Assembly: GCA_965207885.1 (NCBI GenBank)
Contig: OZ242311.1
Span: forward strand, 2,176,001-2,240,000
DNA length: 64,000 nt
Source of the DNA: Candidatus Latescibacterota bacterium
GTDB taxonomy: Bacteria; Latescibacterota; UBA2968
Direction: 5' to 3'
Shown here in pieces: positions 60,533 to 63,756 of the stretch (within the stretch, counting starts at the first letter, position 1; every line of letters starts with the position of its first letter). Made by a program: the position numbers and the translations under genes. Under the pieces are notes generated by a model. The model did no database searches, was not told the DNA's origin, and worked only from the letters and a program-made list of their open reading frames with translations.

Positions 60533-61567
60533 ATGTCCTCTTTTAAAACGCCAGAAGACATCAAAGTGGGTGTTATAGGCTATGGCGGCGCATTCAATAT
60601 GGGCCGCCAGCATCTCACGTTTATGAAAAAGGCGGGTATGACGCCTGTTGCGGTTGCAGAACTCGACGAAACGCGCTTGAAAGTCGCGCGCGAAGAATTT
60701 CCCGGTATCGAGACCTATACATCTGTGTCTGATATGCTGGAAAAATCCGGTGTCAATCTCGTTGTGATCATCACCCCGCACAATACCCATGCCGATCTGG
60801 CATTGCAATGTCTGCGCGCGGGGCGCCACGTTATCAGCGAAAAGCCACTGGCGATTACGACTGAGGAATGCGATGCGATGATCCGCGAAGCCGAAAAGCA
60901 AAACCTCCTTCTTTCCACCTATCACAACCGCCATTGGGATGGGTGTATCCTGAAAGCTCTTGAACAAATTCACCAGCGCAAGGTTATTGGGGAGGTCTAT
61001 CGCATTGAAGCCCACATGGGAGGATACAATCGACCGGGCGACTGGTGGCGCAGTAGCAAGAGCATTTCTGGGGGGATCCTCTACGATTGGGGTGTTCACC
61101 TTCTCGAATATTCGCTCCAAATTCTGCAATCGGATATTGTGGAGGTTACCGGGTTCGCGCACACCGGTTTCTGGGCTGATGAGACCCGCTGGCAGGACGA
61201 TACCAATGAAGATGAGGCCACAGCTATTGTGCGTTTCAAAAACGGAACGTGGATCAATCTCACGATGTCGAGTATCGCATCTGCACCCCGCAAGGGCTGG
61301 CTCGAGATTACCGGTACGGCCGGTACTTATATTTTTGATGGTGGGACGTACGAAATTTTACAGATAAAAGATGGAGAAAAGATTGTCTCCTCTGGCAAAA
61401 ATCCCAGCCATCAATACGATAAATACTACGATAATATTGCCGCACATCTCTCGACGGGTGAAGACCTGATTATCACGCCCGAATGGTCTCGCCGCCCCAT
61501 TCACATCCTGGACCTTGCCTGTAAAAGCGCAGCGATGGGGCAGGCGCTCAAGGCGAAGTACGCATAG
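60533..61567 (+). CDS. Gfo/Idh/MocA family oxidoreductase
   Basis: GVIGYGGAFNMG, HVISEKP, GGILYDWGVH. Confidence 0.92.
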   Translation: MSSFKTPEDIKVGVIGYGGAFNMGRQHLTFMKKAGMTPVAVAELDETRLKVAREEFPGIETYTSVSDMLEKSGVNLVVIITPHNTHADLALQCLRAGRHVISEKPLAITTEECDAMIREAEKQNLLLSTYHNRHWDGCILKALEQIHQRKVIGEVYRIEAHMGGYNRPGDWWRSSKSISGGILYDWGVHLLEYSLQILQSDIVEVTGFAHTGFWADETRWQDDTNEDEATAIVRFKNGTWINLTMSSIASAPRKGWLEITGTAGTYIFDGGTYEILQIKDGEKIVSSGKNPSHQYDKYYDNIAAHLSTGEDLIITPEWSRRPIHILDLACKSAAMGQALKAKYA

Positions 61568-61585
61568 GTGTTGGCAAATACACAG

Positions 61586-61630
61586 AAAAAGCGACCAATG
61601 TCTCTCGACAAAGGCCGCTTTTTTTATTTT
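61586..61630 (+). terminator. Intrinsic terminator at the core/island boundary
   Basis: AAAAAGCGACC..TGTC-tctc-GACA..GGCCGCTTTTTTT. Confidence 0.65.
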
Positions 61631-61870
61631 AATTTTGGCAATTAGCTTTATAAAGCCTTCCTTGTAACTGATTTTCCCGTAATGTGTTACAAGAATATAT
61701 ACTGAAAGATAGTCAGAAACAAGCTTGATTGTTAGTTGGTTGTAGGCTTATCCACGTAAGCCTGAATTCGCTACCCGAAATTCAATCAAAATATAGCCAG
61801 GAATGGCTTTGGACTGGCAATGAAGAAGGGCACGCTCTTGTGGAACGTGCCCTCTCGACCAACCTGTATT

Positions 61871-61945
61871 TTACAGGTCGATCCGTATAGCTATGACGAT
61901 CTTCCAGACTCGGATAGCCATTGCGACAATGATTGTACGTCTCAT
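61871..61945 (-). CDS. 24-aa hydrophobic/basic peptide, candidate type I toxin
   Basis: AAAAGGAGaactggcaATG then MRRTIIVAMAIRVWKIVIAIRIDL*; own promoter upstream and a structured 3' region. Confidence 0.55.
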   Translation of the reverse strand: MRRTIIVAMAIRVWKIVIAIRIDL

Positions 61946-62034
61946 TGCCAGTTCTCCTTTTCTCCCTCGCGGGATTCGGAGTGATAAACAACAACTGGCT
62001 ATTATGTAATCTCAGAGCTATTATATCTGATTCA

Positions 62035-62063
62035 AATATACATAGGTTTGTGAGGCTTGACAA
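62035..62063 (-). promoter_or_regulatory. Sigma70-like promoter for the small peptide gene
   Basis: Minus strand TTGTCA-17 bp-TATATT. Confidence 0.5.
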
Positions 62064-62080
62064 GCAATCAAAATAGGGCA

Positions 62081-62359
62081 TCATCTCCTTTCACGATGAT
62101 CTTTGCCCATCTTGTATGCTGTTGCTACTGATATTAACCACACGATAGTCCAGATTACATTGTCTTCGCCAAACACATCACATAACGCACCAAATATATC
62201 TAGATAAAACCAAAAGAACACGCTTATATGAGTCACAACATTCCATAGAATTTTCTTTGCTCTTTTCGACGGGTCTGAAGCAAAAACAAGTATTGCACTG
62301 AGAAAGAAAAGTGGCAGATTTATAGAAAACAATATGATAAGTATTTCACTCGTATCCAT
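62081..62359 (-). CDS. Small multi-pass membrane protein, hypothetical
   Basis: RBS AAGGA; three hydrophobic segments. Confidence 0.6.
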   Translation of the reverse strand: MDTSEILIILFSINLPLFFLSAILVFASDPSKRAKKILWNVVTHISVFFWFYLDIFGALCDVFGEDNVIWTIVWLISVATAYKMGKDHRERR

Positions 62360-62408
62360 AAATAAAGTCCTTACTAAATACCCAAACGTTCTTCACAAGT
62401 CAATCGGT

Positions 62409-63218
62409 TTAATCGTTCCCCCATCCGTGATACGAAAGATGCTTATATACAACGTCTGCCCATACTTCAAAATGAGCCGCTTTCTGATACTGATATAAAT
62501 TGGGCGGTCTCGTATGTGGATGATAAGTGTTTAGCCAAATAATCTCCATCTCTCCAACCGTTATTAGATAAACATAGCACTCATCTACGCAGGTTTCAAG
62601 TCTCTCTGCTGATCCGTAGCAGTCCTGCTCGCCATTGTAAATTCCACTTTCAACGACTGCTTGTGCCATTCTACCTTGCGTTACAAGTATATCAGGAGAC
62701 AAGATTTCAATTTCTTTAGGTAGAAACTTCCTGCAATTATTAAACATCGTTATTGATGCCATTGCGTTTCCCTTGTTATTCTGACAGCACTTTGCACTGT
62801 TGGTATGTGCGAAGTAAGAACCAACTTTCTTGAATTGCAGGCTTGGTCGAAATCTCCTTAGAAGCATCCAAGCAAGTATATGTGTTTCTTGCCAATGATC
62901 GCCTTTTGGTAGCGATAACGGATCATCTCCTACAACTTCAATGTTGTCTATCACAGTTAATGCCCTTTTGTATGGGTCTTTGTCTGCTGACCCAGGATCG
63001 AGGGAGACAAATAAGACTCTCGGTAATTTATTCTTGATATAATCCGCTCCAATAGTTGGTTCAGTTGGTCCTACAAAGTCAGGATTCCCGCCTTTGCATT
63101 CTTTACAATGGACACAGTTGAACCTATTGGCAGATATACCTTTTGATTCATAATAAAATCTTAGTCTCCTAATCATTCTATCACAAAACCATTGTCTTAT
63201 TCTATCTACATTGTTCAT
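62409..63218 (-). CDS. Uracil-DNA glycosylase superfamily protein (divergent)
   Basis: LFVSLDPG, HTNSAKC, NCRKFLPKEIEILSPDILVTQG, TYHP; N-terminal CxxCxxC; RBS AGGAG. Confidence 0.7.
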   Translation of the reverse strand: MNNVDRIRQWFCDRMIRRLRFYYESKGISANRFNCVHCKECKGGNPDFVGPTEPTIGADYIKNKLPRVLFVSLDPGSADKDPYKRALTVIDNIEVVGDDPLSLPKGDHWQETHILAWMLLRRFRPSLQFKKVGSYFAHTNSAKCCQNNKGNAMASITMFNNCRKFLPKEIEILSPDILVTQGRMAQAVVESGIYNGEQDCYGSAERLETCVDECYVYLITVGEMEIIWLNTYHPHTRPPNLYQYQKAAHFEVWADVVYKHLSYHGWGND

Positions 63219-63228
63219 CTTGATGCTC

Positions 63229-63756
63229 CTATCTGTGAAGTTTCCAAACATAGTCAGTCGAGAATGTCCAACCAAACGATTGAGGATTGCTTGACAACCT
63301 GTAATAATTCCAGAGTATCCTTGCCGCTTCATCAGTGACAGTATTCAAATGTTGCTTGAACAAATACGTCCTCGTCTCATTAGAAGGAATTGTATCCGTA
63401 ATAGCAACATTAAAAGACTTCAATCCTCGACTGCTAAAAGTTGCTGGTTCATCCATTTCTACACTCAATCTGGCAAGGATAAGTCTCAACGGTTCCCTAC
63501 CCGTTTTGACTACACAACGAATTAGAAGGAATTGCAAATTGTTTCTGTCCAATCCACCAGCGGTAACGTAACCGTGTATAAGCGCGTTAGGGCGGTCTTT
63601 CTCATATACCCGAAAAGCGTCACGGGATATAACTGTATCGCGCTTAGACGCCTTAACTTGCGCCCCTTCAGCGTATAGCACGTTGTTGTGTCGGACTTGA
63701 GCAAAGGCATTGCTCGACAACAATAGCAACAAGCCTGACAATGCTAAAACTTTCAT
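63229..63756 (-). CDS. Exported hypothetical protein
   Basis: Signal peptide MKVLALSGLLLLLSSNAFA; RBS GAGGAG. Confidence 0.65.
   Translation of the reverse strand: MKVLALSGLLLLLSSNAFAQVRHNNVLYAEGAQVKASKRDTVISRDAFRVYEKDRPNALIHGYVTAGGLDRNNLQFLLIRCVVKTGREPLRLILARLSVEMDEPATFSSRGLKSFNVAITDTIPSNETRTYLFKQHLNTVTDEAARILWNYYRLSSNPQSFGWTFSTDYVWKLHR

Follow-up and report, generated by a model that had tools for sequence, protein, structure and literature searches.

Type I toxin–antitoxin systems combine a toxin mRNA of 150-400 nucleotides (nt), encoding a toxin of 20-60 amino acids (aa), with an antisense RNA of 60-200 nt (PMC8594479; statements drawn from this source and from PMC6733600 hold, here and below, for excerpts of the two articles). 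The T1TAdb database lists 24 literature-reported families from 218 species, and its descriptors include Shine-Dalgarno (SD)/anti-SD pairs, 5′ and 3′ stem-loops and 5′-3′ long-distance interactions (PMC8594479). The anti-SD lies either within about 11 nt or far downstream, where it acts via a long-distance interaction (PMC6733600). The primary transcript of aapA from Helicobacter is inert through such a 5′-3′ long-distance interaction; in aapA3, two metastable hairpins form in sequence before a third anti-SD locks the RNA, and the active form lacks the last 35 nt of the 225-nt full-length transcript with its 90-nt reading frame, while aapA1 encodes 30 residues (PMC6733600). In hok of plasmid R1 and its chromosomal homologues, the 3′ end of the toxin mRNA folds back and silences it, and coupled covariations back a conserved folding pathway (PMC6733600, citing Gultyaev et al. 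1997). In TisB/IstR-1, ShoB/OhsC, Zor/Orz and DinQ/AgrB, the antitoxin is found 5′ of the mRNA (PMC8594479). Type I modules have been catalogued almost only from well-studied organisms, and judging by titles and abstract openings, the literature that mentions Latescibacterota together with toxin–antitoxin systems does not deal with type I. In this work we analyzed a small minus-strand transcription unit near the right end of a 64,000-nt window, i.e., positions 2176001-2240000 of the single 6.23-Mb contig of a Latescibacterota genome (G000:C1:2176001-2240000; G000, G015, G016 and G020 are our labels for genomes, and X5, X8, X9 and X10 for sequencing runs). An earlier note on this DNA had suggested a self-contained small-peptide locus of the type I toxin kind at this site.

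As far as the comparison of two genomes can tell, the unit is a real, conserved element that pairs a small hydrophobic open reading frame (ORF) with a start-hiding mRNA fold on mobile islands of two species. We read the locus as a self-contained gene for a hydrophobic, cationic 24-residue peptide whose mRNA resembles a type I toxin mRNA, and would put the probability of this reading at about 0.5. The unit probably represents a new type I-toxin-like family with a putative toxin function, belonging to no known family. Membership in the type I class is not established: an antisense RNA was not found, and toxicity is a prediction. Including its promoter, the unit covers about 270 bp, and its RNA of about 240 nt is predicted to run from 62028 to about 61787 on the minus strand. 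Its parts are as follows.

62063-62035, minus strand: sigma-70-like promoter TTGTCA-17-TATATT with 10/12 consensus matches; the transcript is predicted to start near 62028
62012-62030, minus strand: 5′ terminal hairpin UCAGA-loop-UCUGA, present in the minimum free energy (MFE) fold
61995-62002, minus strand: 5′ strand AUAGCCAG of an outer 5′-3′ helix, an exact 8-nt inverted repeat with 61793-61800
61954-61981, minus strand: anti-SD/SD hairpin in which CUCC (61981-61978) pairs with GGAG (61957-61954) around a UCCC-GCGA-GGGA tetraloop hairpin
61961-61954, minus strand: ribosome site AAAAGGAG
61871-61945, minus strand: 24-codon ORF MRRTIIVAMAIRVWKIVIAIRIDL plus TAA, with the ATG at 61945 and the stop at 61873-61871
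61942-61952, minus strand: 5′ arm ACUGGCAAUGA of the long-distance interaction, over spacer and AUG, the exact complement of 61813-61823
61926-61932, minus strand: UCAUUGU inside the ORF, invariant in both species; in predicted folds, the AUG region pairs with it until the 3′ tail is made
61887-61921, minus strand: inner hairpin in the ORF, AUGGCUAU...AUAGCUAU (helix 6, 14 pairs)
61857-61883, minus strand: 12-bp hairpin, an inverted repeat, with the stop codon in its loop
61827-61853, minus strand: 11/12-bp hairpin rich in guanine and cytosine (GC), with one G.U pair, directly 5′ of the fold-back arm
61813-61823, minus strand: 3′ arm UCAUUGCCAGU of the long-distance interaction
61785-61808, minus strand: terminator-like hairpin AGCCAUUCCUGGCU and T-run AUAUUUUGAU, the predicted 3′ end of the transcript
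61793-61800, minus strand: 3′ strand CUGGCUAU of the outer helix, which complements AUAGCCAG and lies within the terminator-like hairpin

The promoter, the ribosome site and the 24-aa ORF that the earlier note had placed on the minus strand were all found again there, as were its stop-codon hairpin (61883-61857), its 11-bp hairpin (61853-61827) and the exact 11-nt complementarity between 61952-61942 and 61823-61813. The upstream anti-SD hairpin, the outer 8-bp helix and the terminator-like hairpin with its T-run extend that list. The latter, at 61808-61785, is the sole terminator-like site in the region 61500-62500. Immediately after the GC-rich hairpin follows the clamp arm, about 37 nt from the predicted 3′ end. 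In 3′-truncated folds, AUAGCCAG finds an alternative partner, UGGCUAU, inside the ORF.

Folding of the minus-strand RNA had been proposed in the earlier note as a check, and its outcome lies far beyond shuffled controls. The 241-nt RNA folds with -95.6 kcal/mol, whereas shuffled sequences reach -60.2 +/- 4.5 kcal/mol (z -7.85; 0/200 shuffles as good). After adjustment for GC, not one of 1500 random windows of 241 nt from this genome had a lower energy, and none of the 365 GC-matched windows reached -95.6 kcal/mol, their minimum being -94.6; in raw energy, 16 of the 1500 random windows were lower. The plus strand folds more weakly (-80.9 kcal/mol, z -4.66), and this difference of 15 kcal/mol suggests a minus-strand RNA. 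In the predicted fold of the full-length RNA the start site is almost completely masked: the SD is unpaired with a probability of 0.005, the AUG with one of 0.001. The long-distance duplex ACUGGCAAUGA/UCAUUGCCAGU has an energy of -19.0 kcal/mol and the anti-SD hairpin one of -12.4 kcal/mol. Taken by itself, the 11-nt fold-back is not significant, since an arithmetic estimate gives about three exact 11-nt inverted pairs within 200 nt per 64 kb. The outer helix is part of the MFE fold when the RNA starts at 62030 or 62012; with the predicted start at 62028, the segment 61808-61795 folds as a local terminator hairpin and not as the outer helix.

The earlier note had further called for other copies of the unit and for covariation of its 11-bp pairing. 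In 151 phylum genomes that we searched with a covariance model built from the G000 sequence alone, a single clear match came up, at G015:C1:6453872-6454068 (56.4 bits, E 3e-13). G015 is a different species of the same genus, and its diverged copy had been missed by a BLAST-type search. Rebuilt from both sequences and run against the 151 phylum genomes and 31 genomes of the taxonomic family, the model recovered only G000 and G015, the next best match (E 0.157) being a single hairpin; the family hence has two known members, in 2 of the 31 family genomes. Other searches had the following outcome. With the 301-nt unit as query, a BLAST-type DNA search of its own genome gave the self-match only, and in 61 relatives chance matches of 29-30 nt only. 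A DNA search of plasmids and phages found no relative, and the single-sequence model found no match in 36 fetched loci. Scans of contig collections, i.e., with two patterns in viral contigs, with a conserved-block pattern in metagenome and viral contigs, and with the 100-aa frame described below as a proxy in metagenome and genome contigs, also revealed no relative. A weak match in G016 (17.8 bits) looks unrelated on inspection. Pieces of the unit occur in contigs of sequencing runs, with 0 differences in X8 and X9 and 1 in 391 nt in X5, which speaks for presence only and offers no variation that could be used.

An unguided alignment places the homology of the two copies between the -35 region and a point just beyond the 3′ fold-back arm, with a mean column identity of 74%. 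The promoters are in register, TTGTCA-17-TATATT in G000 and TTGTAA-17-TAAATT in G015 occupying the same alignment columns, and the block TTGCTTGT at the promoter is invariant. Folded on its own, the G015 RNA reaches -91.2 kcal/mol (z -6.18) and shows the 5′ hairpin, the outer helix and a long-range helix that closes three hairpins. Its 5′ terminal hairpin sits at the same place with another stem sequence, and its outer helix is built from different letters. All eight pairs of the anti-SD hairpin (helices 2 and 3; -11.7 kcal/mol in G015) are invariant in both species. Helix 6 (61921-61887) has one compensatory pair of 14, is paired in 89% of its cells and was recovered by unguided alifold analysis. 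Both sides have changed in 4 of the 12 pairs of the stop-codon hairpin (helix 7), and 3 of the 12 pairs of the GC-rich hairpin (helix 8) are compensatory, with 100% of cells paired. The core of the long-range helix, GGCAAUG/CAUUGCC, is invariant; its flanking letters differ between the species but match each species' own partner arm. The G015 arms GGAGAGGCAAUG/CAUUGCCUCUCC pair with -23.9 kcal/mol, and the clamp there includes the SD as well.

In the model-fitted alignment, 13 of 78 pairs are changed on both sides and 93.8% of 145 cells are paired; this alignment was fitted to the model and leans toward the structure. None of 500 shuffles scored as high, and slid controls gave 0-1. The unguided combination of MAFFT and RNAalifold yielded 36 pairs, eight of them compensatory, and regained the long-range core. 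This conservation in G015 shows that the arrangement is under selection. The search for further copies was thus answered by one homologue with covarying helices, and ORF and pairing, whose lack of conservation the earlier note had named among its grounds for refutation, are both kept at the homologous locus.

The two copies have different neighbors. In G000 the unit resides on a transposon, whose content is described below. The G015 copy lies in a low-GC island (G015:C1:6447500-6459500) with a HaeIII-type restriction enzyme and a D12 methyltransferase, a second D12 methyltransferase operon, a DUF4238 protein and a Mutator-family transposase. In neither genome is there a same-strand gene downstream of the unit. 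Because the two copies sit in different low-GC mobile islands, we regard the unit as self-contained, as had been assumed before on the G000 copy alone. A leader-peptide attenuator of the ilv/leu type was considered, given the Ile/Val-rich ORF and the alternative pairings, and was rejected, as a downstream gene on the same strand is missing and SD and AUG are occluded.

Growing transcripts fold with the same order of pairing in G000 and G015. In G015, the SD is paired with the upstream anti-SD already at 89 nt, the shortest transcript that was folded. In G000, transcripts of 88-100 nt leave the SD about 30% unpaired, and the trap holds from about 110 nt on. The MFE partner of the AUG is the UCAUUGU 15 nt downstream at transcript lengths of about 110-210 nt (G000) or about 100-210 nt (G015). 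From about 220 nt on, it moves to the 3′ arm in both species, and in G015 the SD moves too.

From transcription through processing and translation to toxicity, the course of events might, we infer, be as follows. On its synthesis the SD would be caught by an anti-SD that lies about 20 nt further upstream, the hairpin having about -12 kcal/mol, and the AUG region would pair first with the ORF-internal UCAUUGU. Transcription of the 3′ tail would then pass the AUG on to a 12-bp long-distance helix that closes the multi-stem junction; in G015 the SD would go with it. By analogy, 3′-to-5′ trimming up to the hairpin 61853-61827 could then strip off the fold-back arm and leave a more translatable form; this hairpin may serve as a stop for a 3′ exonuclease or as a leaky terminator. 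The peptide might finally enter the membrane and do harm there, which would stabilize the mobile DNA that carries the unit.

With a predicted transcript of about 240 nt and peptides of 24 aa (G000) and 25 aa (G015), the unit falls into the size range of the type I class, and like the primary transcripts of this class its RNA appears inert in silico, with SD and AUG masked and the masking conserved and covarying in G015 (PMC8594479). Among the closest known systems is aapA/IsoA, as far as the excerpts cited above describe it. Both are short stand-alone mRNAs, here of about 240 nt with 24 codons. In aapA, SD-trapping hairpins form in sequence, upstream of the SD and in the ORF, to which the anti-SD hairpin and the ORF-internal AUG partner would correspond here. 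Finally, the active aapA3 form is shorter by about 35 nt; the 3′ clamp of the unit directly follows a stable hairpin that lies about 37 nt before the predicted end. Unlike in aapA/IsoA, however, the long-range helix covers AUG and spacer (the SD only in G015) and is not purely an interaction of the 5′ with the 3′ end. An antisense RNA like IsoA was not found, and truncation, as predicted, does not free the SD. We saw no sequence similarity between these systems, which belong to different phyla.

With hok/sok the unit shares carriage on mobile DNA and, in prediction, the masking of the mRNA by its own folded-back 3′ end. It differs in that there is no Hok/Gef Pfam match, no overlapping mok-like frame and no Sok-like RNA among Rfam models. 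The hok mRNA is also about twice the size of the mRNA of the unit. Among the families with a divergent, non-overlapping antitoxin, some toxins are, like the peptide encoded here, small and hydrophobic with charged residues inside the hydrophobic stretch. In likeness to TisB/IstR-1-type systems, a divergent promoter-like site is conserved beside the promoter of the putative toxin gene; in contrast to them, no upstream segment is complementary to the mRNA, Rfam gives no IstR or OhsC match, and an SOS-type context was not seen. If our reading is true, the logic of SD trap, metastable hairpin and 3′ clamp has evolved or spread far beyond the well-studied organisms, to an uncultured sponge-associated genus. 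The unit would then also be a compact system in which co-transcriptional RNA folding can be tested in two species, and would be candidate addiction or stabilization cargo on an IS1595-type transposon.

Evidence for translation comes from the comparison of the ORFs. In G015, AAGGAG and AUG are kept, and the 25-codon ORF MRILIVLLAIRVCNICLAIRIDYMR holds its frame over a 3-nt gap, i.e., a one-codon indel. The peptides are identical in 14 of 22 aligned residues (BLOSUM62 sum 63). The 19 nucleotide differences are distributed 7/3/9 over the codon positions, and a random placement of 19 differences gives equal identity without a stop with P = 0.017. Seven conserved residues use different synonymous codons in our by-eye reading of the alignment, the remaining two frames are interrupted by stops, and replacements are mostly hydrophobic for hydrophobic. 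SD sites are in regular use in G000, preceding 1735 of 3832 long ORFs (45%) versus 8% of random positions, and the 16S tail contains CCUCC.

The peptides have grand average of hydropathicity values of 1.25 (G000) and 1.47 (G015) and net charges of +4 and +3. They share a layout of M-R, an 8-residue hydrophobic run, an Arg, a mostly hydrophobic run of 7-8 residues, and R-I-D; Lys15 breaks the second run in G000. A beta-hairpin-like alternation of hydrophobic and basic residues, as suggested before, is not a conserved property, with hydrophobic moments at 170 degrees of 0.43 (G000) and 0.07 (G015). In agreement with the earlier note, which recognized no family, the peptide had no match at E up to 10 in Pfam, 1 in NCBIfam and 0.01 in PHROGs, searches of low power with so short a query. 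Hok/Gef, Ldr, TisB, Ibs and Fst are names of type I toxin families among the Pfam and NCBIfam models, and none of them matched. The 4227 Rfam models scored far below gathering on the unit at best, e.g., Atu_C9 with 14.5 bits versus 40, and none overlapped the G015 copy.

Several observations weigh against a type I toxin gene. Promoter-like and SD plus ATG matches are frequent by chance, as are SD plus ATG plus 24 open codons, and the four promoter-like sites in the 1-kb region are not in excess of shuffled sequence (2.7 +/- 1.6). The coding signal is modest, with two sequences and a P of about 0.02, and is confounded by structural constraint. An Arg is conserved amid the hydrophobic stretch, so that the peptide forms no clean transmembrane helix. 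Paralogues in G000 were found neither by DNA search nor by peptide tblastn nor with the single-sequence covariance model, whereas multicopy families are frequent in type I systems; the family here counts only two members. Equilibrium folding moreover leaves activation unexplained: after truncation the SD is still predicted to be trapped and the AUG to find a new partner, and no activated form is predicted.

The antitoxin is the other point. No plus-strand promoter with at least 9/12 matches occurs within 61640-62050. At a looser threshold, two antisense-side promoter-like sites with 7-9/12 matches are common to both species. One is an antisense site with a weak -10 element, GACAAT/AACAAT (7-8/12), from which an RNA would oppose AUG, SD and 5′ untranslated region; the other, TATTAT/TATAAT (8-9/12), is divergent, next to the promoter of the unit, and reads away from the ORF. 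Conservation of both sites proves nothing, since this sequence is already constrained by the ORF or the helices. Nearby repeats able to give a trans-pairing RNA were not found, and neither the unit nor its G015 copy matches an Rfam antitoxin family. A trans-encoded antitoxin nearby was rejected as a candidate, the duplex energies being within background. From the original type I toxin idea, the masked start, the mobile DNA and the conserved ORF with its pairing hence stand, while its antisense partner was not identified.

The unit could alternatively be a structured non-coding small RNA carried as island cargo, in which conserved helices give rise to the ORF and the SD-like purine run as mere by-products. 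We consider this unlikely but worth weighing. In its favor, the multi-stem fold is very stable, contains a GNRA tetraloop and 13 compensatory pairs and differs between the strands; SD and AUG are exposed in no predicted form, and the 7/3/9 codon pattern is only mildly periodic, with a coding P of about 0.02 from one sequence pair. Such by-products, however, would not explain why the frame is kept over a 3-nt indel, why AAGGAG and AUG stand at working spacing, or why the sole frame open in both species mostly exchanges one hydrophobic residue for another. Neither an Rfam family nor a complementary target among the start regions of the island genes was found for such an RNA; regulation of the transposase or island genes was rejected, as complementarity at their start regions does not exceed background.

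Somewhat more doubtful still is a harmless small membrane protein whose mRNA throttles itself by a 5′-3′ clamp of the icaR type, without any toxin–antitoxin logic. In Staphylococcus aureus, the 3′ region of the icaR mRNA reportedly pairs with its own ribosome-binding region and limits translation. All structural and coding evidence fits such a protein equally well, and no antitoxin was found. But icaR is a normal-sized chromosomal regulator, whereas the unit is a 24-codon stand-alone island module with additional co-transcriptional traps. It is confined to low-GC mobile islands in 2 of 31 family genomes, and its start is silenced three times, by anti-SD, internal partner and 3′ clamp, an expense that the excerpt of PMC6733600 ties to toxic products.

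The lack of an antitoxin candidate might also be taken at face value. The unit would then be an antitoxin-less, self-locking cassette of about 270 bp, flanked in G000 by an 11-bp direct repeat, that moves between islands, its lethal peptide held back by the folding pathway alone and freed by RNA decay or processing. We give this version little credence; a true lack of an antitoxin would make the unit a case in which RNA folding alone controls a toxin.

The genomic setting in G000 is that of a transposon. At about 61600 the GC content drops to 0.36-0.45, from about 0.50 before, and contigs of the runs X5 and X10, which represent the empty site, follow the core gene up to 61636 and go on with DNA found at genome position 2246555; the island edge that the earlier note had seen is thus real. 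The insertion of 8,902 bp extends from 61637 to the window-equivalent position 70538, next to an 8-bp duplication TTAATTTT at 61629-61636, and has imperfect termini (GGCAATTAGC.../GGAAATAAGC...). It encodes an IS1595-family transposase (PF12762, E 8.3e-28, with the zinc ribbon PF12760) and looks like a cargo-carrying IS1595-type transposon with about nine cargo genes. An 8-bp target duplication is typical of the IS1595 family. Besides several unknown genes, it carries a superinfection-immunity protein and, nested within it, an IS3-family element. The IS3-family element of 1,253 bp (OrfA HTH_Tnp_1, OrfB rve) occupies window-equivalent positions 65286-66538, just downstream of the transposase gene, and G000 holds nine further copies of it that are 100% identical. 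Runs in which this DNA is found are sponge and marine metagenomes. The following landmarks surround the unit.

61637-61700, no strand assigned: left terminus of the transposon, GGCAATTAGC..., then a CTTGTAAC/GTTACAAG hairpin
62065-62075, no strand assigned: upstream copy of a perfect 11-bp direct repeat, CAATCAAAATA on the plus strand
61783-61793, no strand assigned: downstream copy of the 11-bp direct repeat CAATCAAAATA

The unit is located about 150 bp inside the left end of the transposon, and its transcription is directed toward that end. A UDG-superfamily protein with a Cys-rich N-terminal part is encoded upstream at 62409-63332 on the minus strand (PF03167, E 1e-5, weak match to family-4 UDG), followed by a three-helix membrane protein of 92 aa (62081-62359, minus strand). 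Relatives of the UDG-like protein have 74-86% identity in metagenome sequences and 38-42% in six other genomes of the phylum. Defence-system models gave no match for this gene pair, and the UDG-like protein as query retrieved no related loci from genome contigs. The closest related element is found in G020, with a transposase of 67% identity, several colinear cargo genes and the same terminus motif; it has a different IS3-type insertion and lacks the small unit.

That the unit is only a feature of a DNA or transcript end, i.e., a terminator or stabilizer stack of the UDG-like/92-aa operon, a transposon end or a non-autonomous insertion, is very improbable: it does begin 4 bp past the stop of the 92-aa gene and close to the transposon terminus, is bracketed by the direct repeat and beats shuffles also on its plus strand (z -4.66 in G000, -4.91 in G015), but the related G020 transposon does without it, both the operon and the transposon are absent around the G015 copy, the promoter is conserved in register, there are no terminal inverted repeats and no second genomic copy, and the overlapping 100-aa ORF has no homologue and a stop in G015. 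On the same grounds we rejected a conserved part of the transposon end (absent from G020) and a miniature inverted-repeat transposable element (single copy, no terminal inverted repeats). The 11-bp direct repeat is only suggestive, because about 0.1-0.3 such repeats are expected by chance in the region by our estimate. In an X5 variant contig, about 90% identical over the 92-aa gene, the sequence diverges at 62077, the upstream edge of the unit; together with the direct repeat this may reflect an inserted mini-cassette, or chance.

The 100-codon ORF at 61782-62084 (minus strand) spans the whole unit, and its ATGATG overlaps the stop of the 92-aa gene, so that it resembles a coupled gene. We rejected it as a gene: a search of 5.8 billion proteins gave no homologue, the ORF is absent from the protein collection, and the stop in G015 interrupts it. 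In the same region, the -35 element of the unit sits in a palindrome CTTGTCAAG (62057-62084, plus strand), which also yields a plus-strand promoter-like sequence TTGACA-16-CATCAT (10/12) that reads antisense into the 92-aa gene.

Just beyond the transposon end in G020 there is an 85-aa ORF (L035 12982-13239) that by eye looks like a DUF433-type, antitoxin-like protein. In G000, a second copy of the terminal 60-70 bp, 78% similar and including the CTTGTAAC/GTTACAAG hairpin, is found at genome positions 4102142-4102217. It abuts an apparent tRNA 3′ end, as judged by eye, and the same T-rich target, and may be a relic or a second element of this transposon family.

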